64,000 nucleotides of DNA from Candidatus Thorarchaeota archaeon (GTDB taxonomy: Archaea > Asgardarchaeota > Thorarchaeia > Thorarchaeales > Thorarchaeaceae). The stretch is from assembly GCA_048882045.1 (NCBI GenBank), contig JBHLRZ010000004.1, positions 78,373-142,372 on the forward strand, read 5' to 3'. Positions 2,020 to 57,154 of the stretch are shown piece by piece. The notes beneath the pieces were generated by a model that was given only the letters and a program-made list of their open reading frames with translations, did no database searches and was not told where the DNA came from. Within the stretch, counting starts at the first letter, position 1; every line of letters starts with the position of its first letter. Made by a program: the position numbers and the translations under genes.

Positions 2020-4083
2020 GTGACTAAACTGAATAATTACCCAACCAAAGATCCAGTGCTTGTGACATGCGGACTTCCATATGCAAGTGGTCGGATGCAT
2101 ATCGGTCACCTCAGGACCTACGTGCCTGCCGACGTGTTTGTCAGACTCCTGAAGAAAATGCAAGTAGATGTCACGTTCGTCTGCGGGTCTGACACCCACG
2201 GTACACCTGTCATTGTGCAAGCTGAGAAAGAGGGTCTCACACCAAAAGAGACCTATCAGAAGTACCACAAGATTCTGAAGGACACCTTCCCTCGACTCAA
2301 CATCTTCTTTGATAACTATGGGCACACAGACAATGAGGAGAACCACAACCGGACCACCCAGATTGTCCAGACTCTCGTTGACAACGGACACATCTACGCG
2401 AAAGAGATTGAGACTCCATACTGCGATACATGTGGTCGGTCTCAACCTGACCGTTTTGTACGTGGCGAGTGTCCCTACTGTGGCACAGATGCCCGTGGAG
2501 ATGAGTGTGATCAAGGCTGTGGACGATACATTGAACCAGGTCTGATACTGAACCCACGATGTGCAGTGTGCGGCAATCCAACCCGACCAATCACTAGGAA
2601 ACACCAGTTCCTTCGACTGAGTGCGTTCGAGGACTTCATTGGTGAGTATCTGCTGACTGTAGACGGTACTAAGAATGCGAGGAACTTCGCTTTAGGCTGG
2701 GTCAAAGAGGGCCTGAGAGACTGGTGTATCACTAGAGATCTCGACTGGGGGATCAAGTTCCCAGGTGATGATTCACTCGTCCTCTACGTATGGGTTGACG
2801 CCCCAATTGGATATATGTCGAGCACAGAGCAGTGGGCGAAGAAGATTGGTAAGCCCAATGAGTGGGAGAAGTACTGGAAACCAGGTAATGGACGACTAGT
2901 ACACTACATTGGTCTGGACATCGTTCAGCATCACTGTATATTCTGGCCTGCTATGCTGAAAGGCAGTGAGTATAACCTTCCCTTTGCAATAGTTGCATCT
3001 GGAATGGTCAAGATTGAGGGACACAACTTCAGCAGAAGTCGCGGCTATGTTGTTTGGGTGGAAGAAGACTATCTTGACAGAGGACTGGATCCAGACTATC
3101 TGAGATACTACGTTGCATCATACACCTCTCAGACTAAGGACCTAGACTTCAGTTGGGATGCCTTCTCTGATAAGGTGAACAACGAACTGGTTGCTACCCT
3201 AGGTAACTTCCTCTATCGGGCGATTCACTTCTCACACAAGCACTTCAAAGAAGTGCCAAAGGGAAAGTTGGATTCAAACCTAGAGAAGGAACTTGAAAGT
3301 GCGATCAGTACAATCACTGATGCTATAAACGAGTACGAGCTGAAGAAGGTCGCTGATGAGGTTCTGAGAATCGCATCCGTTGGCAATGAGTACTTTCAAG
3401 CGCAGCAGCCATGGAAGCTCGTGAAGGAGGACAAGGAGAAGACTGGAGAGGTGTTGTTCAATGCCCTTGCATTGTCCAAGGCTTTGGCAATATTCATAGA
3501 ACCATTCCTCCCATCTGCTGCTGAATCAATCTGGGGACAGCTAGGCTTTGAACCGACCCAAGTTCATGAAACCCTCCTCAAGGATACTCTTGTGGTTCCT
3601 GAGGTAGGGACTAAGCTTGGTAAACCAGTCCCAGTGATTTCCAAGATAGAGGAGGACCAGCTAGCTGAACTCAAACAGATCATTAGCGACCGAGTAGCCA
3701 AAGCTAAGGCTGAGCAAACCGGAGAGGTGGAACTGAAATTGGCACCAATTAAAGACACGATATCATTTGATGACTTTCAGAAGATTGACCTTCGTGCAGG
3801 GAAGATTCTGAAGTGTGAGAAGGTGAAAGGCAAGGACCGACTCCTCAAGATCGAGGTAGACATCGGGACCGAGAAACGCACTATGGCGACCGGACTCGGG
3901 CATCTCTATAAACCTGAGGAACTAGAGGGTCTAACAGCCCTCTTCCTGGTCAATCTTGAACCAAAGAAAATTGGCGGCATCGAGAGTCATGGTATGATTC
4001 TCGCTGTGGAGAGAGCTGACAAGGAAGGGACCTGGATTCCTGTCAAGCTCGAAGATCTTCCACCGGGAAGTAAGGCTGCATAG
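2020..4083 (+). CDS. metG: methionine--tRNA ligase
   Basis: LPYASG..HIGH, GSDTHG, zinc-knuckle CxxC motifs, YVWVDAPIGY, C-terminal tRNA-binding domain (DFQKIDLRAG..NLEPKKIGGIESHGM); GTG start with AAGGAG. Confidence 0.98.
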   Translation: MTKLNNYPTKDPVLVTCGLPYASGRMHIGHLRTYVPADVFVRLLKKMQVDVTFVCGSDTHGTPVIVQAEKEGLTPKETYQKYHKILKDTFPRLNIFFDNYGHTDNEENHNRTTQIVQTLVDNGHIYAKEIETPYCDTCGRSQPDRFVRGECPYCGTDARGDECDQGCGRYIEPGLILNPRCAVCGNPTRPITRKHQFLRLSAFEDFIGEYLLTVDGTKNARNFALGWVKEGLRDWCITRDLDWGIKFPGDDSLVLYVWVDAPIGYMSSTEQWAKKIGKPNEWEKYWKPGNGRLVHYIGLDIVQHHCIFWPAMLKGSEYNLPFAIVASGMVKIEGHNFSRSRGYVVWVEEDYLDRGLDPDYLRYYVASYTSQTKDLDFSWDAFSDKVNNELVATLGNFLYRAIHFSHKHFKEVPKGKLDSNLEKELESAISTITDAINEYELKKVADEVLRIASVGNEYFQAQQPWKLVKEDKEKTGEVLFNALALSKALAIFIEPFLPSAAESIWGQLGFEPTQVHETLLKDTLVVPEVGTKLGKPVPVISKIEEDQLAELKQIISDRVAKAKAEQTGEVELKLAPIKDTISFDDFQKIDLRAGKILKCEKVKGKDRLLKIEVDIGTEKRTMATGLGHLYKPEELEGLTALFLVNLEPKKIGGIESHGMILAVERADKEGTWIPVKLEDLPPGSKAA

Positions 4084-4102
4084 TTATCACTACCATTGAA
4101 GA

Positions 4103-4140
4103 TTTCTGCAGAACCAGTTCTGCAGAAACTCCTTTTCTTT
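4103..4140 (+). terminator. hairpin plus T-tract after metG
   Basis: TTTCTGCAGAAC-CA-GTTCTGCAGAAA followed by CTCCTTTTCTTT, between convergent genes. Confidence 0.6.
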
Positions 4141-4157
4141 CTAGACCATGTACGGGA

Positions 4158-4538
4158 TCACTTAGTCATGTACGAGTACAGGAATAGGATGAAGAACAGC
4201 GCATAAAGTCCTGTGAATGCCCAGCCAACGACTGGAAGTGTCATTGTGAGCATATTCCATAGACTCGCAACCAAACCAAGTAGAGTCAACAGAATCTCAA
4301 GTATGACTAGTATCTCTACACGGTCGAAGGATTCCTCTCTGAAGGCAAGCAGTGAAATAATTGCTAGGGCAATGAACATTGACCCAAAAGATCTGTCCAT
4401 AGCAATCTCCACCGGCCATCCCATAGAACCGAAGAAAACATCTGGAACTACGAATAATGCGACTCCAAAGAATATAGTCACCAAAAAGTGTAGTATCCAT
4501 GTGTATTTCAAAACGATCGATACCATAATTTTACTCAC
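4158..4538 (-). CDS. 4-TM membrane protein
   Basis: 126 aa with four hydrophobic segments. Confidence 0.7.
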   Translation of the reverse strand: MSKIMVSIVLKYTWILHFLVTIFFGVALFVVPDVFFGSMGWPVEIAMDRSFGSMFIALAIISLLAFREESFDRVEILVILEILLTLLGLVASLWNMLTMTLPVVGWAFTGLYALFFILFLYSYMTK

Positions 4539-9685: not shown

Positions 9686-10180
9686 TTACTCGTCGTGAAG
9701 TGTGGTTAAGTTCTGAATTACATCAGGACAGACCTTGACATCATCTGATAGAACATTGATGTAGCGGATGATTCCTTTCTTATCAATAATGAAGAGACCT
9801 CTTTTGCCATAACCTTCACCTGGTGAGAAACAATCATAGCCAAGTGTTACATCTCCAACAGGTTCATGGTCCGACAGCAATGGAAAACCTATCCCTCCGA
9901 GGCTCTGAGACCATGCCTTGTTGGTTCTCACAGTGTCCATGCTGATACCCAAGACCTGTGTATCCAGCTCTTTGTATTTCAGTAGGTTCTCTTTGTAGAG
10001 TAGAAGGTAGTTCTTGCACGAATCATTAAGGTCTCCGGGATTCAATGCTAGAAGGATATTGTATTTCCCTCTGTAATCTGAGAGCTTTACCATATTCCCA
10101 TCTTGATCGGGTAACTCAAAGTCAGGAGCTTCTTCCCCAATATTTAGACAAACCTTTTGTTGACGCAATATCATTTCCAT
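9686..10180 (-). CDS. peroxiredoxin-like protein (AhpC/TSA, AhpE/BCP type)
   Basis: GEEAPDFELPDQDG, PGDLNDSC, VLGISMD, FPLLSD, RGLFIIDKKG. Confidence 0.85.
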   Translation of the reverse strand: MEMILRQQKVCLNIGEEAPDFELPDQDGNMVKLSDYRGKYNILLALNPGDLNDSCKNYLLLYKENLLKYKELDTQVLGISMDTVRTNKAWSQSLGGIGFPLLSDHEPVGDVTLGYDCFSPGEGYGKRGLFIIDKKGIIRYINVLSDDVKVCPDVIQNLTTLHDE

Positions 10181-10197
10181 TCACACACATCAAATAG

Positions 10198-10211
10198 TTA
10201 ACAATAGTTAA
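10198..10211. promoter_or_regulatory. palindromic operator candidate TTAAC-AATA-GTTAA (copy 2)
   Basis: Identical to 4657-4670; 17 bp before the peroxiredoxin start. Confidence 0.55.
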
Positions 10212-10342
10212 ATCATTTTGTATTAGTGATTCCTCTTCAGATTTCCATCACTAATCAATACTTACAGCTGGCGACCATGAGCATACTAGGATTGGAAGCA
10301 CATTTCCCAATTCTTATACAGAAACTCTACAGAGATAATTCG

Positions 10343-11032
10343 ATGTGCGGTCGTTTCTCCCTTCTGACATATGCAGAGAAACTAGCGGAGCGTTTCAATG
10401 TTCAGGAGGTCATTGACAGACCTGATCCCATTTACAATATAGCTCCATTGCAGATGGTGGCGACTGTTGTACAGAGGGAGACCCGCCAGTTGGTCCTGAT
10501 GAAGTGGGGTCTCGTTCCATCTTGGGCTGATGACATATCGATAGGAAACCGTCTTATCAATGCCCGTGCTGAGTCCATAGCTACCAAGCCATCATTTCGG
10601 GCGGCCTTCAAAAAGCGGCGCTGTCTGATCATATCAGATGGATTTTATGAATGGCAAAAGGTGGGCAAGGTCAAAAAACCTATCCATGTCCGATTGAAGA
10701 ATCGTGAGCCATTTGCATTCGCGGGACTCTACGAGTATTGGAACAAGACCAAATCAGGAAAATCCCTCCAGACATGCACAATCATTACAACTTCTCCAAA
10801 CAGGCTCATGAAGTCAATACACCACAGGATGCCTGTCATTCTGCGTCCAGAGTTTGAGGACAAGTGGCTCAATCCGGAAGCAAAAGCCGAAGAGCTAGAG
10901 GCAATGCTTCAACCTTACCCTGCTGAGGAGATGGAAGCCTTCGAGATCTCCAAGTATGTGAATAATCCTCGAAATCAAGGGCCTGAGTGTATCCAACCTG
11001 TAGATGAAACAATTCAGACAACCCTCCTCTGA
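10343..11032 (+). CDS. SRAP/HMCES/YedK abasic-site-protecting protein
   Basis: MCGRF N-terminus (catalytic Cys2 fixes the start at 10343), YNIAP, WGLVPSW, INARAE, GFYEW, HHRMPVIL. Confidence 0.95.
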   Translation: MCGRFSLLTYAEKLAERFNVQEVIDRPDPIYNIAPLQMVATVVQRETRQLVLMKWGLVPSWADDISIGNRLINARAESIATKPSFRAAFKKRRCLIISDGFYEWQKVGKVKKPIHVRLKNREPFAFAGLYEYWNKTKSGKSLQTCTIITTSPNRLMKSIHHRMPVILRPEFEDKWLNPEAKAEELEAMLQPYPAEEMEAFEISKYVNNPRNQGPECIQPVDETIQTTLL

Positions 11033-11069
11033 ATTTCGTATTGCGGCCCAATGGGAATGGCGTGTCCTC

Positions 11070-11120
11070 AGGGGAATGTAGGGAATTTGACCTCGTGATA
11101 TTCTCCTCTGTTCTTTTTCC
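11070..11120 (+). terminator. hairpin plus T-tract after SRAP
   Basis: AGGGGAATGT pairs with ATATTCTCCT, then TGTTCTTTTTCC. Confidence 0.5.
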
Positions 11121-11315
11121 AATATTTGATTTTAATCAATGATGTAGAAGTTTCTGGGCTCATTTCACCCTACCAGATGTAAGCATAATACTTATATAAT
11201 GTAATACTATTACAAATTACATGATAACCGTAAGAGTTCGCATGGAACAATGACGGTTCGAGGAGATAGATGGCTGTTGAACCAGCAAACTGATGAAAAA
11301 TGGAGGTGAAGTGTA

Positions 11316-11417
11316 ATGGCACTCGCAAAAGGAAACTGGAAGAAGTTGAACAACGCCAAGAAGGCTTGGTCTACTGAAGCACTGGCTCATGCATGGCTCC
11401 ACAATCACCGTGCGTAA
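11316..11417 (+). CDS. 33-aa basic small protein MALAKGNWKKLNNAKKAWSTEALAHAWLHNHRA (not in ORF track)
   Basis: GGAGGTGA SD just upstream, TTATATAA at about 11192, downstream hairpin 11452-11478. Confidence 0.6.
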   Translation: MALAKGNWKKLNNAKKAWSTEALAHAWLHNHRA

Positions 11418-11451
11418 AGATCTAGGCATCAGCCAAGTGATCAATCATAAT

Positions 11452-11491
11452 GGGAGTGTCCGTATCATGCGGACTCCCTCCTCTCATTTTC
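11452..11491 (+). terminator. hairpin plus pyrimidine tract after the 33-aa ORF
   Basis: GGGA-GT-GTCCGTA-TCA-TGCGGAC-TCCC then TCCTCTCATTTTC. Confidence 0.5.
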
Positions 11492-11537
11492 GTACCTGTT
11501 ATATATCACCGCACATATCCTTGACTGAGGGTATATT

Positions 11538-11813
11538 ATGGCTGAAATTGATGCGCCACCAAGCAGTCGACCGCCGCCTCGGAGTTCTAGTACAAGTGAT
11601 ATGAGTGGTGGGGGACTCGCAAAAGCTGCAGGAGGATGTTGTGTGACCTTCTGTTTGTGTGTCTTTGCTATCTCATTCCTATTAGTAGGAATGACAGCAT
11701 TCTACTATCCATCAATCGGATTCATGTTCACTGGAATTGGTCTACTTCTCCTGTGTGCAGGATTGGCAGCAGCACGATGGGAGTGGGGTGTTCTCAAGGG
11801 CTCAAGCGGATAG
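11538..11813 (+). CDS. small 2-TM protein with Pro/Ser-rich N-terminus and Cys cluster (paralog 1)
   Basis: MAEIDAPP..GL.KAAGGCCVTFCLC; paralogous to 11878-12135. Confidence 0.75.
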   Translation: MAEIDAPPSSRPPPRSSSTSDMSGGGLAKAAGGCCVTFCLCVFAISFLLVGMTAFYYPSIGFMFTGIGLLLLCAGLAAARWEWGVLKGSSG

Positions 11814-11877
11814 TTATCTTGGGTATTTCAGCTGTCATTATATTCTTCCACTGCTCTCTGCTTCTGAGGGGATATTC

Positions 11878-12135
11878 ATGGCTGAGATTGAAGCTCCTTC
11901 CGGACATCAACCTCCAGAAAACCGCTCTGGTGGGAGTAGTGACCTGAGTACAAAAGGACTCGTGAAAGCAGCCTGTTTTTGTTGCTTCGTGTATTATGGA
12001 ATAGGTCTTATCATCGTTAGTCAATGGATGGAATTTTCCATTTGGTCTGGACCCCTATTATTGATTGGAATTTTGTGTTGTGTTGCAGGCCCTTTACTAG
12101 CCATAAACGAATGGAAAGTATTCAAGAGATCTTAG
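11878..12135 (+). CDS. small 2-TM protein with Pro/Ser-rich N-terminus and Cys cluster (paralog 2)
   Basis: MAEIEAPS..GL.KAACFCCF..EWKVFKRS; same CTGAGGG-ATATT-ATGGCTGA start context as paralog 1, which fixes the start at 11878. Confidence 0.75.
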   Translation: MAEIEAPSGHQPPENRSGGSSDLSTKGLVKAACFCCFVYYGIGLIIVSQWMEFSIWSGPLLLIGILCCVAGPLLAINEWKVFKRS

Positions 12136-12180
12136 GATTTTTCTCGGGGATTTTATACTCTTTACCCTGTACAGAAGGGC

Positions 12181-12513
12181 ATGGAGGCTCAAGTCACCGA
12201 ACATACTTCGGGCTACATTATCTATGACGCCCGAAGACTTCCTGAGGCTGATACAGTCTATGAGGCAGCGACCAAGATAGCAGATGAGATCATGGAGGGC
12301 ATCGAGCGGCTGACTTTTTCGAACACCATTGAAACTGCCACACTCTTCATAACAGGATCTGGTGCTCAACTCATACTCTTTGCACGGTCATTTGATGAGA
12401 ACCTCATAGCTCCAGCATTTCGGACTACTCTAAGGAGTGTTTCATATGATTCAGACACTGGTTACATCCAACGATATGTGATTCCAATCCTCGATGTTGA
12501 ATCCACATCGTAA
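12181..12513 (+). CDS. hypothetical protein
   Basis: 110-aa soluble ORF with no recognised motif. Confidence 0.65.
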   Translation: MEAQVTEHTSGYIIYDARRLPEADTVYEAATKIADEIMEGIERLTFSNTIETATLFITGSGAQLILFARSFDENLIAPAFRTTLRSVSYDSDTGYIQRYVIPILDVESTS

Positions 12514-12583
12514 TCTACGTACATCAGTAAATATATCTAACAACTGATGGTCGCTTGAATATTCGACGGTGTTGGTGTTTGAA

Positions 12584-13633
12584 ATGGAGATTGAGCTAAG
12601 ACCATTTGATCCTTTCAAAGCAACCAAAGAAGAATGGAAGGCATTCCATGAGTACCGGTACAAGAGATACCCAGAAGCACATCCGGATGATCCAATCACA
12701 GCAGATGATGTTGTTGAAAAGAACCTTCGGTTCTTGAGAGAAGAGGAATATATTGAGACACACAGTGTTCATCAAAAGGGTGTTTCAGACGAGTGGATTG
12801 GTCTTGTACGCGTGAGTGTTATGAAAGAGTCCTCGCCATCATATGAGGAAAACAAGCATTTTTGCTATGTATACAATCTAGCTCTTCTGACTCCGTATCG
12901 AGGGAAAGGAATTAGCAAACAGCTTCTGGTTGTAGTTCTTGAGTTTGCTGAGAGATACAAGAAAAGAATGATCATTGGCGAAACTTCTGAGGATGACGGT
13001 AAGAAATTCATCAAGAAACTGAAAGCCGAGGAGGCTCTTTCTGGTTTAGAGAGTCGTTTAGACCTGACAAAACTGGATTGGGACATGGTGAATGAATGGG
13101 CAAGAGAGGGGCCAGTTAGGTCTCCTGAATCCAAACTGGAGTTCTTCCAGGATTGTCCAGATGATATCTTAGAAAAGTATTGCGAGATATATACCGAGGT
13201 TGATAACCAAGCTCCAAGACAGAATCTGGATGTTGGTGACTACATAATCACACCTGAGCTTCGTCGAAAATATGAGAAGTATCACAAGGATGTTGATGCC
13301 ACGTGGTTGACCGCCATTACTCGAGAGTCCAATGGTGATATCTCTGGCATGACAGAGGTCCTATATCGTCCTTCCAAGGACCCACTCATCTCTCAACACC
13401 TCACTGGCGTTTCAGACAAGTATCGTAGTACAGGGAAAGGTAAATGGCTCAAGGCTGTCATGCTTCAAGAAGTCTGTAGGCGCTTTCCATCTGTCACGAC
13501 AGTCGTCACCGGAAATGCTACTACCAATGCTGCTATGCTCTCAATCAACAAAAGGTTGGGCTTTAAGGCTCACAGAGAGTCGATTATGGCTCAGATGAAG
13601 ACAGAAGATCTTGAGAAGTATCTTGCTAGGTAA
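12584..13633 (+). CDS. tandem GNAT-family N-acetyltransferase
   Basis: Two acetyl-CoA motifs (YRGKGIS and TGV..KYRSTGKG) and NATTNAAMLSINKRLGF. Confidence 0.88.
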   Translation: MEIELRPFDPFKATKEEWKAFHEYRYKRYPEAHPDDPITADDVVEKNLRFLREEEYIETHSVHQKGVSDEWIGLVRVSVMKESSPSYEENKHFCYVYNLALLTPYRGKGISKQLLVVVLEFAERYKKRMIIGETSEDDGKKFIKKLKAEEALSGLESRLDLTKLDWDMVNEWAREGPVRSPESKLEFFQDCPDDILEKYCEIYTEVDNQAPRQNLDVGDYIITPELRRKYEKYHKDVDATWLTAITRESNGDISGMTEVLYRPSKDPLISQHLTGVSDKYRSTGKGKWLKAVMLQEVCRRFPSVTTVVTGNATTNAAMLSINKRLGFKAHRESIMAQMKTEDLEKYLAR

Positions 13634-13731
13634 TTTCGCCAAGTCACTTGACAAGACCCTCATCGCAAATTTGACAATCTTTAAACAGCTTCAATCGAAA
13701 TCACAAGAGGAATCATTATCGTATTCAATAG

Positions 13732-15429
13732 GTGGTGGGCTTCTTGAGGAGAGCATTGGCAATAATACTCTCACTGGTCATTTGTAACCTGTTTGTCCCA
13801 CTTGTTGCTCTATCGACTCAACCAACAACAGAACTATCACCATCGACTTCAGTTCTTTCTGAAGAGTTGACATTTTCTACATACTTTGGTGGCAGTGAAG
13901 ATGATACTATCCATTGTGTTGTTGCTGATGACTACGGGAACATCTACATTGCAGGTGCCACTTCGTCGAATGACATCCCTTCAGGTGGTGCCCTAAAGAG
14001 ACCGTACGCGGGGAATGGTGACTACTATGTGACAAAGGTGAATGCAACTGGCCACATAGTCTACACAACGTATATTGGCGGGGCGATGTGGGAAGGATAC
14101 GCAAGTCTACATCCCAGCGGAGGTTGTTGGATAGATGTTGATGATATTGGTCGAGTCTACATGACTGGTTATACAGTGAGTGAAGATTTTCCAGTTGTGA
14201 ATGCTTGGGATGACACTTATAGCGGTACTACTGATGCCTTTGCACTAAGACTCAGCGCTACTGGTATAATTCAGTACTCAACATACCTTGGTGGCAATGG
14301 TCAGGATGTTGGAACATCCATTTCTGTTGATGACTTTGGAAATGCGTATGTGACTGGAACCACAGAGTCTACTGACTTTCCAGTTCTGAATGCTTTTGAT
14401 GACCATCAAAGTGGGGATCGAGATGTGTTCATTTCGAAACTAGATTCAACAGGTCAGCTGAGCTATTCTACATACATTGGTGGCGGACTTTCTGAGAGCT
14501 CACGAACTGGCGGTTCAACTGTCGATGGGAGTGGTAATGCATACATTGTTGGGAACACTAACTCGTTAGATTTTCCCACAGTGAATGCATATGACGATTC
14601 TTGTGAAGGTATTTCTGGCGACCTCTTCTTTTGTAAGATCAATACAACTGGTCACCTATTAGCGAGTTCATTTTTCGGTGGATCGGCAACTGATGACCAT
14701 GGAAACATTGCTGTTGATAGTGCTGGAAACATCTACATCTCGGGTCATGGGTCAGGGAATTTTCCAAAGACTCATACCCTCACAACAAATCACAACATGT
14801 TTGTGGCTAAGTTTGATAGTAGTGGCGAGAATCTGATTTACTCTGCAGCCTTTGGCGGTTACAACGCTGACAATCCATATGGTCTGGAAGCCGATGATGA
14901 TGGTTGTGTGTTTCTTACTGGATCTACATACTCGTCGGACTTTCCTATGGAAAATGCCTATGATGATTTGAAAGGAGGATATATGGACAGTTTTCTGGTG
15001 AAACTGTCGAGTGGCGGTGACCACATTCTCTTTTCTTCGTACTTTGGTGGGAATTCTGTGGAGTATGGGCTATCACTCACGAAAACCAATTCCAGCTATG
15101 TCTATCTCGCTGGGATTACGAACTCAACAGATTTTCCATTGGCATCACCAATTGATTCGACATCACAGAATGTTGAAGGTTTTCTACTCAGAATTGAGGA
15201 TGTATGGTCAGATATTCCACCTACATCTACAACCTCTACGACTACAACTTCGACCACTACCACCATTACAACAACCTCGCCTTCTACTACGACGACTCCA
15301 ATTTCAATCTCCACCTCAGGTGTAGGATTATCTACAGTGGTAATTGACGGTCTTTTGATCGCAGGAATTGGGGTTGAGGTAGCAATCATAGTCGTATTTC
15401 TTTCACGTCGTCAACGCGACAGACATTGA
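13732..15429 (+). CDS. SBBP beta-propeller repeat surface protein with Thr-rich linker and C-terminal TM anchor
   Basis: Repeated YSTYxGG..D..G..YxxGxTxSxDFP units, signal peptide, poly-Thr linker, TM plus RRQR. Confidence 0.9.
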   Translation: MVGFLRRALAIILSLVICNLFVPLVALSTQPTTELSPSTSVLSEELTFSTYFGGSEDDTIHCVVADDYGNIYIAGATSSNDIPSGGALKRPYAGNGDYYVTKVNATGHIVYTTYIGGAMWEGYASLHPSGGCWIDVDDIGRVYMTGYTVSEDFPVVNAWDDTYSGTTDAFALRLSATGIIQYSTYLGGNGQDVGTSISVDDFGNAYVTGTTESTDFPVLNAFDDHQSGDRDVFISKLDSTGQLSYSTYIGGGLSESSRTGGSTVDGSGNAYIVGNTNSLDFPTVNAYDDSCEGISGDLFFCKINTTGHLLASSFFGGSATDDHGNIAVDSAGNIYISGHGSGNFPKTHTLTTNHNMFVAKFDSSGENLIYSAAFGGYNADNPYGLEADDDGCVFLTGSTYSSDFPMENAYDDLKGGYMDSFLVKLSSGGDHILFSSYFGGNSVEYGLSLTKTNSSYVYLAGITNSTDFPLASPIDSTSQNVEGFLLRIEDVWSDIPPTSTTSTTTTSTTTTITTTSPSTTTTPISISTSGVGLSTVVIDGLLIAGIGVEVAIIVVFLSRRQRDRH

Positions 15430-47329: not shown

Positions 47330-48169
47330 CTACTGGAGTTCTACAGTAAGTGAGTTATACTCACCAGGAGTATACGCGATCCGAACAGAGATTTCATCTC
47401 CATTCTTCACATTTACAGATGGGTCCAATGGCAGGAACAGCTGTTTCCACCCATCCTCCATTTTCAAGATGATGTTCTCATGCAAAATTGACTCAAAGAA
47501 ACCAACAAAACCATGGATGGTTCCATCTTCTACTATTCTGAAGTCGAGAACTTCATCAATCACCTTGGTGGTTGATGACTCTGCGAAATTCAATTCCTTC
47601 AAGATTTTTGCATCTGCTAGGTCTCTTGATGCTTCCGGACTTACAGTCTGTACGACACTCGGGAATCGCAAATCGATAACAGAGAAGCGATCCGTCATCA
47701 GCTGACTCTCAACTGGAACAATGCATATCGTCGCAGATTGAGGAATGAGAAGTCCGCTCTTTTTCATCACATATCTAGTTGCATGATTACATGCTGCCAC
47801 CTGTTGTTCAATAAGCATGATAGATGATAACATCTCACAGATGACCAAGTCTGCTTTCTCTTCACCAACAAATTCTGAGAAATGACACTCCACAAAATCA
47901 GTTCGATCTCCAACTCCGTTCATGACAGCAGCCTTGCGAGCGTAGCTAATCGATTCTCTGCTTATATCTATCCCTGTAACTTTGCGAGCTCCCGCTTTTG
48001 CTGCCATGATTGCTAAAACACCAGAACCTGTTCCTATGTCAACAACATAATCATCGCTCTTCACAATCCTTTGAATTGCGTTCTGGAACTTGGCAAGTCT
48101 TGTCTTCTGCCCAAGCAACGTTGCAGCATGGAGCATTGTGAATGGGGTTGCATATTCTTGGTCTTTCAT
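47330..48169 (-). CDS. class I SAM methyltransferase of protein-arginine methyltransferase (PRMT) type
   Basis: VVDIGTGSGVLAIMAAKAGA, double-E loop CEMLSSIMLIE, LIP, GTIHGFVGFF, GWKQ. Confidence 0.8.
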   Translation of the reverse strand: MKDQEYATPFTMLHAATLLGQKTRLAKFQNAIQRIVKSDDYVVDIGTGSGVLAIMAAKAGARKVTGIDISRESISYARKAAVMNGVGDRTDFVECHFSEFVGEEKADLVICEMLSSIMLIEQQVAACNHATRYVMKKSGLLIPQSATICIVPVESQLMTDRFSVIDLRFPSVVQTVSPEASRDLADAKILKELNFAESSTTKVIDEVLDFRIVEDGTIHGFVGFFESILHENIILKMEDGWKQLFLPLDPSVNVKNGDEISVRIAYTPGEYNSLTVELQ

Positions 48170-48243
48170 CAAATTTTGCCATAACGAATCTTACTTATAA
48201 TACAACTGAGAGCGACCTGTTACCAAGTAAGGCTGGAATTGGC

Positions 48244-52024: not shown

Positions 52025-52366
52025 CTACTCGGTCACCCTCATCGCTCTGGATATTGCGAGAAAGATAACAAGGAAAACGCTTGCTACAGCAGCAAGTACC
52101 CGAGCGACTTTTTGCCATCGTTTCAAGGGAATCTCAATCTCTCGGAGTTCGTTTGTAACCTTTTTGAGATACACACGCCTCTCGGTATAAAGTGCTTCTT
52201 GGTCGTCGATCTTGGAAGAATACTCACCCCAACTCTGATACAATGGCTCTTCTGGATTTGCTTCAATCCATTCAATGTAAGTTTCTAGAATTTCTTCCTT
52301 GTGTGGCGATGGAAAACCCTCAATTACCTCTCGTACTCGGATTTCCCAATCGTTATCTTTTGTCAT
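52025..52366 (-). CDS. tail-anchored hypothetical protein
   Basis: Soluble helical N-terminus and a single C-terminal TM preceded by KRWQK. Confidence 0.72.
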   Translation of the reverse strand: MTKDNDWEIRVREVIEGFPSPHKEEILETYIEWIEANPEEPLYQSWGEYSSKIDDQEALYTERRVYLKKVTNELREIEIPLKRWQKVARVLAAVASVFLVIFLAISRAMRVTE

Positions 52367-52531: not shown

Positions 52532-53053
52532 TTATCTCATCTTGGCGAGCTCTTTACTCCACTCTTTGATATCTCCACGGAGCTTTGAAAGGTCGCTTGG
52601 GCTGATAGTATCCACACGACCGTAAGTACGAAGTATTCTTGTCCATCGTTGCATTTTCACAATGAGGGAGCTGGCAACTCCCGCACCTTCAAGAATTCCT
52701 GCGGACTCACTAATCTTTTGCGCAAGATCACTTGCAATGACTCCTTCTCGAACTTGAGTTTCAAGAGTATCCAACACTGCTTGAAGAGATGACACTGCAC
52801 CTCGGTCAGACAGACTGGCAGCTGGTGCGGCTGTGGCTGCTAATACCCCTCCCTTACTCTTGATAATTTCCATCATCTCATCAAGACGTTCCGTGTTGGC
52901 ATTTACAGCAATAGTCAGCTCTGAAGTATTCTCTTGGACATCAGTGATTGCGGAGATGACTTCAATCATTCTATTAAGCATCTGTGTGAGTCTCTCAATA
53001 GCTCCATTGATCTCAGTGAGTTTGGCCCGGACATAGGTGTCTTCTTCGCTCAT
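52532..53053 (-). CDS. coiled-coil protein with a C-terminal helical bundle (possibly Vps28-CTD-like)
   Basis: Heptad repeats at about aa 8-65, Ala/Pro linker, amphipathic helices at about aa 86-173; GGAGAGG upstream. Confidence 0.75.
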   Translation of the reverse strand: MSEEDTYVRAKLTEINGAIERLTQMLNRMIEVISAITDVQENTSELTIAVNANTERLDEMMEIIKSKGGVLAATAAPAASLSDRGAVSSLQAVLDTLETQVREGVIASDLAQKISESAGILEGAGVASSLIVKMQRWTRILRTYGRVDTISPSDLSKLRGDIKEWSKELAKMR

Positions 53054-54444: not shown

Positions 54445-55134
54445 ATGTTTCTGGATACTCCAAATCTACGCATTACGGTTGACAGACCTGGTCTGAGTAT
54501 AGGAATGGTTGTCTTAGAGGATCTCAAGGTGGGTAGTTCAAGTTCATCTTTCGAGTTATACGAGCAGGAAACCTTCGAAGAACTACGTTCGATGATGACA
54601 CTTGATGAAGTAAAGGACGACCCAATCTTTAGGTCGTATAGAGACCTCTATTGGACATTAGGAATGGACCCCACAAAATTAAGAGTTTCAAGCGAAGCTG
54701 TTCTTCGTCGAATATTGAAAGGGCAGAATCTCTGGAGGATTTCTGATGTTGTAGATATCATTAACCTCGCATCTGCGTATCACAAGATACCTATCAGCCT
54801 TATTGACATCTCCAAACTGAAAGGCAATTTGGTCGTTCGAACAGCGGAAAATGGCGAAGTTTTCCAGAGGATTGGTGGAAATAAAATCATATGCAGAGGT
54901 CGTGAAATCGTTATCGCAGATGATGAGAAGATTGTCTGCTTTGGATATGCAACTCATGATTCTGAACGTACAATGATCACTATGGACAGCAAGCGCGTTC
55001 TCATGCTTCTTCTTGGTTCACAGGCTGTAACTAGTCAAGTGATGGATAGCGCATTGCGAACTACCTTAGATATGATAGATGAATGGCTCGACTGCAAGGT
55101 GTCAGAACCAGTGACATTCCGATCAAAGGACTAG
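54445..55134 (+). CDS. stand-alone B3/4 (PheRS-beta editing-like) domain protein
   Basis: YRDLY..GMDPTK.R.SSEA.LRR, VDIINLAS. Confidence 0.88.
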   Translation: MFLDTPNLRITVDRPGLSIGMVVLEDLKVGSSSSSFELYEQETFEELRSMMTLDEVKDDPIFRSYRDLYWTLGMDPTKLRVSSEAVLRRILKGQNLWRISDVVDIINLASAYHKIPISLIDISKLKGNLVVRTAENGEVFQRIGGNKIICRGREIVIADDEKIVCFGYATHDSERTMITMDSKRVLMLLLGSQAVTSQVMDSALRTTLDMIDEWLDCKVSEPVTFRSKD

Positions 55135-57089
55135 AACTCTAGGAATGGCTGACCGAGGACTATCCTCTCAAGGATACTATTCTTGCTAGCGTTCTTGACC
55201 ATTTGCTCGAACTGATTCTTCAAGCGCTTCTCATCCACATAGTCCGGTTCCTTGACTCCCATGCTTTCTATCACTAATCCAAGCATGTACTCGAACTCAT
55301 AGACGAGGTACAAATCCTTCTTTCCTTTCTTCTCTAATTTGACCTTTTTAGCCAGTCCCTGTTTCAGAGCTTCACGAGTTTCGGTCAGGTAAGTGTACAT
55401 CGCCTTCTCGTAGTGGAGATCTCCTCTCTTCACCAGCTCTTGGAGGAAAGGAAGTCCGAAAGTCCTCCGGGCAATTGCTTCTATTCTAGCTACAAATCCA
55501 TTGATGATATCTTCGTACGACACCATTCCGGCCTGCCCACGGGTCGAAAACACCTTTTCATCATCTGCCGCACTCTTGAATTTCGCTTTCTTCGCTGCTA
55601 ATAATTTCTCACGTTCAAGACGAGCGGCTTCATCGGCTTTCTTCTTCTCCTCTTCCAGACGCTTTCGTTCAGCTTCAGTTTTTGCAGCCTCAAGCTTCTT
55701 CTGCCTCTCCAGTCTGGCTTTTTCTCGCTTCTCCTCTTCCTCTTTCTCCTTTGCGAGTCTTTGTGCTTCAAGTTCTTTCAGTATCTTCTCCTGCTCTACG
55801 CGTAGCTTCTGCATGTATTTCTGAACATCTCGTTCAGTGAGCGTGATATGCTGTGTCAGGAGCCATCTGACTCCAATATTGTTGACCTTTGGTTTCATGT
55901 CTGCTGATGAGAAGATGAAATTGGCTGTCTGCTGGCCTGGAAGTCGTGTGATTATTTCCTCGGATTCTTTCTCTCCTGCGATGGGTTCCAGTATTCGCTC
56001 CAGCACCTTGAGAGATTGTTCACTACTTATTCGCCCAGCTGATATTGTGTTGAATTGCTCAAAGGCCTTGTAGTCAATGTCCTTTGGACTCTGGGTAGCT
56101 ATAAGGCACTCGATTCCATACTTTCTTGCTTGCCTGAAGAGGAGTAGGAAGGTTTCCTTTGGACCAGGTGCTCTCATCCCTGCAGGTATGAAAGGCGCTG
56201 CCTCATCTTGGAATATCATCATTCGTGGTTTTTCAGTAAAGCCCTGTCTGAGCATCCATGAATAGAGCTGGTTCAAGACAATAGCTATGAAGAAGTGTTT
56301 CTCTTCTTCGCTCCTCAGAGTCTTGAGGAAGATCACATTGATTGGTGTCTTTCCATTGACCTTCTTTGTCAGATGATCAAAGTCGATGTTGCCTTCTTCT
56401 TTGAAGAGGAGTTGGGATGATCCGACTGTCAGACTCCTGATTCTAGTAGCCAATGTTTGCCTTTCGGAGAACTTCATGAAAGGCTCGAGGTCTACACCTA
56501 CCGTTTCTGGGTCAGCCACAAGCATGTCCGCTAATTCCGAGAGCTCATCAATCTCAGTCTTCTGAGCTTCCCAGATGGTCCTAAGCAGTTCGTAGACTGC
56601 AGCGAAGGCTTTACCTTCCCATGACCTAGATAATCCTGCTACTTTCATGAGAACCTTAACTAAGGTTCTCGCTGAATTATCTAAAAGACGAATGATGTCA
56701 TCCTGATCTGCATCTCTATCAGGTAGTTTCAATGGATTGATTGAAATCGCAAGACCCTTGCTGCTAGCCGGAGTGTAAACTCGGACAATGACATTATCCA
56801 TGTACTCCTTTAATCTCTCTGGAGGTACTCCTTTTGATGCAAGTTCTTTTGGATCTCCTGGGAGCATCAATGAAGCGATATCTCCTTGAGGATCGAAAGC
56901 TAGAACTGGAATCCCTTCCATAGCTGCCTCTTCCAAGATGCATTTCGATAAGACTGTCTTTCCAGATCCAGTTGAACCGAAGACTCCTCCATGTCGTCGG
57001 AGGAGGTCCACACTTATCTCGAACTTCTCTTCAGTCCTCTTCCCTTCTTCATCAAGCTTGAATCCAAGCCATAGCTTGTTATCTGCCAT
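55131..57089 (-). CDS. HerA/FtsK-superfamily ATPase (DUF87/DUF853-like) with a long charged helix
   Basis: RH..VFGSTGSGKT, DPQGD, IFQDEA, RQARKYG, ATQSPKDIDYK; E/K/R-rich segment after the ATPase. Confidence 0.88.
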   Translation of the reverse strand: MADNKLWLGFKLDEEGKRTEEKFEISVDLLRRHGGVFGSTGSGKTVLSKCILEEAAMEGIPVLAFDPQGDIASLMLPGDPKELASKGVPPERLKEYMDNVIVRVYTPASSKGLAISINPLKLPDRDADQDDIIRLLDNSARTLVKVLMKVAGLSRSWEGKAFAAVYELLRTIWEAQKTEIDELSELADMLVADPETVGVDLEPFMKFSERQTLATRIRSLTVGSSQLLFKEEGNIDFDHLTKKVNGKTPINVIFLKTLRSEEEKHFFIAIVLNQLYSWMLRQGFTEKPRMMIFQDEAAPFIPAGMRAPGPKETFLLLFRQARKYGIECLIATQSPKDIDYKAFEQFNTISAGRISSEQSLKVLERILEPIAGEKESEEIITRLPGQQTANFIFSSADMKPKVNNIGVRWLLTQHITLTERDVQKYMQKLRVEQEKILKELEAQRLAKEKEEEEKREKARLERQKKLEAAKTEAERKRLEEEKKKADEAARLEREKLLAAKKAKFKSAADDEKVFSTRGQAGMVSYEDIINGFVARIEAIARRTFGLPFLQELVKRGDLHYEKAMYTYLTETREALKQGLAKKVKLEKKGKKDLYLVYEFEYMLGLVIESMGVKEPDYVDEKRLKNQFEQMVKNASKNSILERIVLGQPFLEF

Positions 57090-57154
57090 GTCGAACACCA
57101 ATCACGATGGTATCTTCACTGAGGTTTTAAGAGCCTTTCCAGTATCACTCAAAA

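Follow-up and report, generated by a model that had tools for sequence, protein, structure and literature searches.

Vps28 joins two parts of different standing. Its steadiness-box head assembles with Vps23 and Vps37 and defines membership of ESCRT-I, and its C-terminal domain (Vps28-C) in eukaryotes provides the bridge between ESCRT-I and ESCRT-II. An earlier note on a 64,000-nucleotide stretch of DNA from a Thorarchaeota genome (here, the window) proposed that a short open reading frame (ORF) at 52532–53053 encodes a diverged ESCRT-I-like subunit that has passed as a hypothetical protein. The locus raises two questions that are best kept apart: is the C-terminal bundle of this protein related to Vps28-C, and does the protein belong to ESCRT-I?

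A soluble protein of two conserved modules

The ORF is real. It lies on the minus strand (52532–53053), appears in the ORF list with a translation of 173 residues plus a stop codon, and contains the sequence strings that had been quoted for it. An AlphaFold2 model built on a 33-sequence alignment (mean pLDDT 82.6) resolves the protein into a long N-terminal amphipathic helix (residues 3–67; 52853–53047, minus strand), a variable, disordered linker rich in Ala, Pro, Gly and Ser (residues 68–81; 52811–52852, minus strand) and a C-terminal four-helix bundle (residues 82–173; 52535–52810, minus strand). Residues 3–67 form one uninterrupted helix with the heptad pattern of a coiled coil: 72% of the a and d positions of residues 5–67 are I, L, M, V, F, Y or W (versus 20% elsewhere), a value equalled in just 4 of 5,000 shuffles. 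Across residues 68–84 the pLDDT falls below 50, and the linker differs in length between homologues. The bundle is built from helices 82–100, 107–123, 128–142 and 152–171, modelled with a pLDDT of about 90 or more.

Within the family, column identity is 0.80 in both the N-terminal helix and the bundle and drops to 0.45 in the linker. Invariant positions comprise T6, Y7, A10, N16, I19, R21, N27 and M29, together with S88, L97, Q100, G104, A107, R136 and W137; K133, D148, D154, L158, D161 and W165 are conserved in at least 90% of members. Several of these residues (S88, R136 and W137 in the invariant set, and all six of the latter group) are the positions that the earlier note had matched to Vps28, and its reading of the domain order (heptad coiled coil, flexible linker, bundle) is borne out by the model, the heptad test and column identity. 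The sequence contains no transmembrane helix. The 173-residue protein is a soluble two-module protein on a flexible tether, with the helix and the bundle both under strong purifying selection.

Vps28-C is the closest structural match to the bundle

A VIA-align search of 48,161 PDB representatives returned yeast Vps28-C as the best match to the target bundle (2j9u_A; Z 11.9, RMSD 2.3 Å, 92 of 94 residues aligned), leading the runner-up, a CheA HPt domain, by 1.5 Z. Foldseek, from which VIA-align is independent, placed the Xenopus Vps28 CTD at ranks 1 and 2 among 350,542 PDB chains (2j9w_B and 2j9w_A), with the yeast entries 2j9v and 2g3k further down; TM scores by target for these Vps28 matches are 0.65–0.74 and RMSDs 2.3–3.5 Å, at E values of 0.14–0.9 that are not significant. 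Eukaryotic VPS28 clusters are also among the nearest models in an ESM Atlas search by shape, and the corresponding search by features gave no usable match. Vps28-C (the C-terminal half of PF03997; 2J9U, 2J9V and 2G3K from yeast, 2J9W from Xenopus) is, like the target bundle, an up-down four-helix bundle of ~90 residues.

A replicate came from the C-terminal 105 residues of a 312-residue paralogue (described below), which are ~20% identical to the target bundle and were modelled from their own 19-sequence alignment. Yeast 2j9u_A is again the top VIA-align match (Z 12.3, RMSD 2.5 Å, 93 of 94 aligned), with the next match 2.3 Z below, and 2j9w again occupies Foldseek ranks 1 and 2. A Z of ~12 sits in the range for which VIA-align itself warns that a match may reflect an arrangement common among helical bundles; HPt, Psb27 and designed bundles reach Z 9–10.4 across the two models. 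Structure prediction followed by a fold search had been proposed as a check on the Vps28 assignment, and its outcome favours the Vps28 CTD, top in both Foldseek and VIA-align.

HPt/CheA P1 forms the second-best structural class (Z 10.0–10.4) and was considered as an identity for the domain. HPt domains carry a phospho-accepting His on helix 2, and the 173-residue family has no invariant His; comparison with Asgard HPt by hhalign gives 0.1–0.6%, and PF01627 (HPt) found none in the 17 genomes of the Thorarchaeal family searched. We rejected an HPt identity on the missing profile similarity and the missing His.

Profile comparison singles out Vps28-C

Sequence identity between the bundle and Vps28 is 9–14%, and the target lies below all Pfam and HMM thresholds for Vps28. 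PF03997 has no match at E ≤ 10 to the 173-residue protein, to its C-terminal domain (CTD) alone or to any of 33 family members, for which Pfam yielded just sub-threshold coiled-coil noise (NPV_P10, DUF948, STX6_10_61_N and others). Searches of the PDB sequences by phmmer and hmmsearch, using the protein itself, a target-family profile (A1) or an alignment of the Thorarchaeal domain that combines the target family, the 312-residue paralogues and two fusions (A4), found no Vps28; the matches that they did return, to haemagglutinin HA2, sigma-1 and designed helical proteins, have E ≥ 1e-3.

A different kind of comparison, hhalign, sets profile against profile; for it we aligned the last 105 residues of 31 canonical Asgard Vps28 proteins found through PF03997 in other Asgard families (A3). 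Among all PDB sequences, A3 significantly matches the four entries of the Vps28 CTD (E 8.8e-14 to 8e-7) and no others, and is therefore a genuine Vps28-C profile. Aligning A4 with A3 gives a probability of 92.1% (E 6.1e-7) over 86 columns that run across all four helices and place W137 and W165 on both conserved tryptophans of Asgard Vps28-C. The target family alone reaches 85.5% (E 5.7e-6) and the 312-residue family alone 74.5%; a first attempt with only seven Vps28 sequences had given 50.7%. The CTD of a third, 259-residue family has no signal against Vps28-C when used alone (0.5%).

Every control stayed at or below 1.1%. Reversing the template or the query gives less than 1%, and 60 column shuffles score 11.2 ± 2.0 (maximum 15.4) versus 40.5 for the true comparison. 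Besides the HPt comparison given above, the Vps28 N-domain reaches 0.3%, the N-terminal helix of the target against Vps28-C 0.2%, and an unrelated 410-residue helical family from Thorarchaeota 0.4%. That last family had come up as a Vps28 candidate through a weak PF03997 match (E 0.0016–0.09; 14.4 bits in the genome of the window, where it is the single match of a six-frame PF03997 search), and was discarded on its hhalign result. A second candidate, a 173-residue open frame in genome G026 with a weak PF03997 match, proved unrelated when checked. The A3 profile, run against the genome of the window, does not match the target.

The register can be followed residue by residue. The target has two tryptophans 28 residues apart, on helices 3 and 4, in register with both conserved tryptophans of Asgard Vps28-C; eukaryotic Vps28 keeps the first only. 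Yeast Vps28-C has a V-S...D..L pattern at the start of helix 1 and a D-T in the loop between helices 3 and 4, both of which are also in the target; in the L-F-D-L motif of Vps28, by contrast, the Phe is replaced by Gly in the target. The Vps28 strings quoted in the earlier note are genuine (Xenopus 2J9W, VSLFITVMDKLRLEIR; yeast 2J9V/2J9U, KLIDWIVRINKLSIGDTLTETQIRELLFDL), and its gapless register (K-x3-W, D-T, L-x2-D) agrees with the alignments chained from the target through A3 to the Vps28 entries of the PDB. Its suggested profile search against the Vps28 family divides in outcome, positive by profile–profile hhalign and negative by Pfam PF03997. The likeness to Vps28 goes beyond that of a generic bundle, with first rank in the PDB for two models and an hhalign result of 92% (E 6e-7) against clean controls. 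We conclude that the bundle is probably a remote homologue of Vps28-C.

A Thorarchaeia family with two paralogues

A word-indexed search collected 230 homologues of the 173-residue protein, nearly all of 172–176 residues and labelled Thorarchaeota; 12 clusters were all that an exhaustive phmmer search recovered from 1.84 billion representatives. The family profile is matched over its full length in 73 of the 76 genomes of the GTDB family of the window, and in the one genome of its sister family. Among the remaining 224 of 301 Asgard genomes searched there is nothing comparable, all matches being weak (E ≥ 1.8e-5) and partial. The family is confined to Thorarchaeia. Longer proteins carrying the target CTD were absent from the word-indexed search, which is weak evidence on this point.

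The CTD profile identifies exactly three genes in the genome of the window, encoding proteins of 173, 259 and 312 residues that all combine the bundle with a coiled coil and a low-complexity linker. As far as detected, no other gene of the genome has a Vps28-C-like domain. Their CTDs align with one another by hhalign at 97% (173 and 312 residues), 96% (259 and 173) and 79% (259 and 312), and positions 10–50 of the A1 profile also match the N-terminus of the 259-residue protein. The 312-residue paralogue (L034:8808–9746 on contig 8, plus strand) has a long coiled coil. Around it lies a conserved set of genes (L034:6663–7895, 9900–10703 and 10767–14663) made up of the 410-residue helical protein, a 273-residue gene, a 267-residue protein of unknown type and a 1,298-residue TrmB-HTH giant coiled-coil protein.

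The 259-residue paralogue (L036:2800–3579 on contig 3, minus strand) shares the architecture of the target and belongs to a Thorarchaeota-specific family of 292 proteins (220–272 residues). Its gene is flanked by two Ras-family GTPase genes (L036:1771–2367 and 3765–4367; PF00071, 1e-44 and 4e-39). It also adjoins a CBS-like gene of 140 residues.

Two fusions extend the domain to other Asgard families. In the first (L037:1205–2356, minus strand; genome G058), a 383-residue Arf-family GTPase (PF00025, 1.9e-24) with an extra N-terminal domain has a C-terminal extension that aligns with the Thorarchaeal Vps28-C-like bundle, both tryptophans included. In the second, from a third Asgard family (L038:790–3777, plus strand; genome G194), a 995-residue TrmB-HTH coiled-coil giant with WxxE-type helical repeats ends in a match to the last two helices of the target (IKEWKEKL).

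Relation to described Asgard proteins

Proteins of this general kind have been published. Makarova et al. (2024, mBio, PMC10936438) describe Vps28-C in many Asgard multidomain proteins, often with longin or adaptin-appendage domains, and suggest that such proteins could reach ESCRT-II without a core ESCRT-I. Their 'BAR-SB' protein from Thorarchaeota, KXH73277.1, matches 2J9U_A over residues 155–235 with an HHpred value of 84% (PMC10936438, Fig. 6B and Table S3). As in the target, a long-helix region at its N-terminus is followed by a Vps28-C-like segment at its C-terminus. At a length of at least 235 residues, KXH73277.1 fits the 259-residue paralogue family and not the 173-residue family; judged by length, it is probably of the 259-residue type. 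The 173-residue family is not named in the accessible text and tables of that paper (PMC10936438).

The 173-residue protein falls within the Asgard class of Vps28-C-containing proteins, combining a Vps28-C-like domain (92% by hhalign and top structural match) with a coiled-coil module in a member of the Thorarchaeota. The reading that we favour, and hold to be rather likely, is that it is a Thorarchaeia-specific adaptor of the class described by Makarova and colleagues, composed of coiled coil, linker and divergent Vps28-C bundle, and is not a Vps28 orthologue.

The protein is not an ESCRT-I subunit

In Vps28, the C-terminal domain sits on the steadiness-box head; in the target, the bundle sits on a coiled coil. 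The steadiness box is absent from the 173-residue protein, the N-terminus of which is one 65-residue helix that reaches 0.1% by hhalign against the Asgard Vps28 N-domain. Vps28 is usually encoded alongside other ESCRT genes in Asgard archaea; there are no ESCRT genes within the window. The neighbours encode a purine nucleoside phosphorylase, a phosphoribosyltransferase, a PRMT-like methyltransferase, TPR and NUDIX proteins, a DHH/GAN nuclease, a tail-anchored protein, cupin, HAD and B3/4 proteins and a HerA-like ATPase. In 10–11 other genera of the family these genes stand in the same order across more than 14 kb, an arrangement that the sister family has lost. With the entire stretch collinear, gene context gives no functional link: the neighbourhood survey that had been proposed met a collinear housekeeping region. 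With no steadiness-box head, no ESCRT gene nearby and three paralogous families sharing the domain, the 173-residue protein is not a Vps28 orthologue, nor is it the hidden ESCRT-I subunit that the earlier note had proposed.

Three of the neighbouring genes have features of their own. The HerA/DUF87-type ATPase (55131–57101, minus strand; 656 residues) has a long Lys/Glu-rich coiled-coil insert and, at 78–89% identity across Thorarchaeota genera, is the most conserved gene of the neighbourhood. A 280-residue methyltransferase (47330–48172, minus strand), divergently oriented from the TPR gene, has a PRMT5_C-like match at its C-terminus (PF17286, 4.6e-7). The tail-anchored type is represented by a 113-residue protein (52025–52366, minus strand) with a single C-terminal transmembrane helix and no Pfam family, encoded on the strand of the target, 165 nucleotides downstream; read by eye, its gene comes with a TATA-like box (TTTATAA) and a Shine-Dalgarno-like motif (GAGGTG) of its own. 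The gene keeps its position in 10 of 11 other Thorarchaeota genera sampled, within the collinear region.

The ESCRT complement of the lineage was examined alongside. PF03997 is above cut-off in 194 of 301 Asgard genomes, and in the GTDB family of the window only 3 of 76 genomes have any PF03997 match at E ≤ 1e-4. The family encodes a protein of ~260 residues in which a Vps28-N-like hairpin precedes EAP30/Vps22 winged helices, adjoining Vps25 and Vps4; of 61 family genomes, 57 have this SB–Vps22 fusion. The fusion has been published as cog.002769, and residues 1–70 of KXH75178.1 match PF03997 at 99% (PMC10936438). The premise of the earlier note that Thorarchaeota lack a recognisable ESCRT-I is accordingly imprecise: it is ubiquitin that has been reported absent from them (Hatano et al., PMC9192718), and the Vps28 head is present, fused to Vps22.

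In the genome of the window, the recognisable ESCRT genes are on other contigs, 46 and 41. The assembly, 93% complete and with the contig carrying the ESCRT cluster cut by its end, yielded neither SB–Vps22 nor Vps25. The cluster on contig 46 (L092; 19423–22235) encodes a 521-residue multi-zinc-ribbon protein of the Znr_PH_CC_SB type, with no Pfam match, a 199-residue ESCRT-III and the first 138 residues of Vps4, where the contig ends; contig 41 has a second ESCRT-III gene. On contig 45 of the same genome (L088:1432–3489, minus strand) lies an extra ESCRT-II-like paralogue, a protein of at least 685 residues in which a coiled coil and a beta-rich middle part are followed by a double winged helix of the EAP30/Vps22 type at the C-terminus (PF04157, 24.8 bits); this last part shares 36% identity with the C-terminal half of Thorarchaeal SB–Vps22.

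This complement invites a stronger claim about the target, namely that it is the missing C-terminal half of a Thorarchaeal Vps28 and a true linker of ESCRT-I and ESCRT-II, acting in trans with SB–Vps22. The phyletic pattern is complementary, with no canonical Vps28 in Thorarchaeota, its head on Vps22 and a near-universal 173-residue family, and in Asgard archaea SB and Vps28_C can reside on two different genes (Makarova et al., PMC10936438). Against this, no locus examined has the gene close to ESCRT genes, the steadiness box is missing, and none of the three paralogous families that carry the domain is singled out; we would also expect an SB fused to Vps22 to make an ESCRT-I/II bridge redundant. 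Co-folding of the CTD of the orthologue from genome G002 with SB–Vps22 and Vps25 of the same genome returned a score of 0.01 (mark 0.32), which gives no answer either way. On balance we regard this claim as unlikely.

Other readings of the bundle and the coiled coil

The paralogues open a second route, in which the protein is an adaptor or effector linked to small GTPases, and Rab/Arf-like GTPases or their regulators, not ESCRT, are the docking partners of its bundle. The position of the 259-residue paralogue between two Ras-family GTPase genes speaks for it, as do the Arf-family GTPase of another Asgard family that bears the domain as its C-terminal extension and the occurrence of Vps28-C together with longin domains (Makarova et al., PMC10936438). 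No GTPase gene lies near the target itself (window ~45.3–61.0 kb), however, and it is the paralogues and a single fusion that supply the link, which leaves the proposal doubtful for the 173-residue protein.

A more sceptical view takes the protein as a generic coiled coil joined to a four-helix bundle, with a convergent likeness to Vps28-C and a function outside ESCRT and trafficking, for example a structural or scaffold role. Up-down four-helix bundles do recur, as the scores of HPt, Psb27 and designed bundles illustrate, identity to Vps28 is low and every HMM-to-sequence search fails. Yet Vps28-C tops the PDB structural rankings for two independent models, and the hhalign match, which spans the entire domain in a single register and aligns both tryptophans, is confined to Vps28-C, with HPt and all other controls at 1.1% or less. 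We consider convergence improbable.

Hardly credible, finally, is a SNARE-like or tether coil paired with the co-oriented, tail-anchored 113-residue neighbour: the ~60-residue heptad helix does have polar Asn residues in its core stripe, and the next gene on the same strand, kept in place in most genera sampled, does end in a transmembrane helix, but none of the 33 members matches SNARE or synaptobrevin models at E ≤ 10 (PF05739 and PF00957, by HMMER, the filters of which drop weak matches), the weak syntaxin-6-N matches (15–19 bits, cut-off 29.4) span the disordered linker, the 14-kb collinearity makes adjacency uninformative, the pairing is lost in the sister family, and the neighbour appears to have a promoter-like box and ribosome-binding-like motif of its own. 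SNARE proteins usually carry a membrane anchor at the C-terminus; the 173-residue protein has no transmembrane helix.

A possible mode of action and its meaning

On the preferred reading, that of a Thorarchaeia-specific adaptor with a divergent Vps28-C bundle, each part can be given a putative task. The N-terminal helix would form a homo- or hetero-oligomeric coiled-coil stalk, the linker of ~15 residues would give reach, and the Vps28-C-like bundle would serve as a protein-docking module. By analogy with Vps28-C, through which Vps28 binds ESCRT-II (Vps36/Vps22) or Vps20, its partner may be ESCRT-II or ESCRT-III; the context of the paralogues would suggest small GTPases instead. Oligomerisation, the binding partner and any role in ESCRT function or membrane remodelling are inferred.

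A bolder extension, which we offer as speculative and think unlikely to hold as it stands, is that Vps28-C was detached from ESCRT-I in this lineage and redeployed on three coiled-coil stalks as interchangeable couplers acting in trans, each conveying other upstream signals, for example from Rab/Arf-like GTPases, to ESCRT-II/III. If true, this would be a prokaryotic functional analogue of the diversity of ESCRT-0 and adaptors, with the 173-residue protein as the minimal coupler.

The kind of protein analysed here had already been published (Makarova et al. 2024), and the gain is a well-characterised family with its paralogues, with no new principle. As a soluble protein of 173 residues with two parts predicted to be well folded, the target offers a tractable way to look for archaeal partners of Vps28-C. 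Eukaryotes have no closer known relatives than Asgard archaea, and how the ESCRT modules of these archaea came together is relevant to the origin of eukaryotic membrane trafficking. In Thorarchaeia, Vps28-C is found, as far as detected, only on short coiled-coil proteins, and the Vps28 head is on Vps22.
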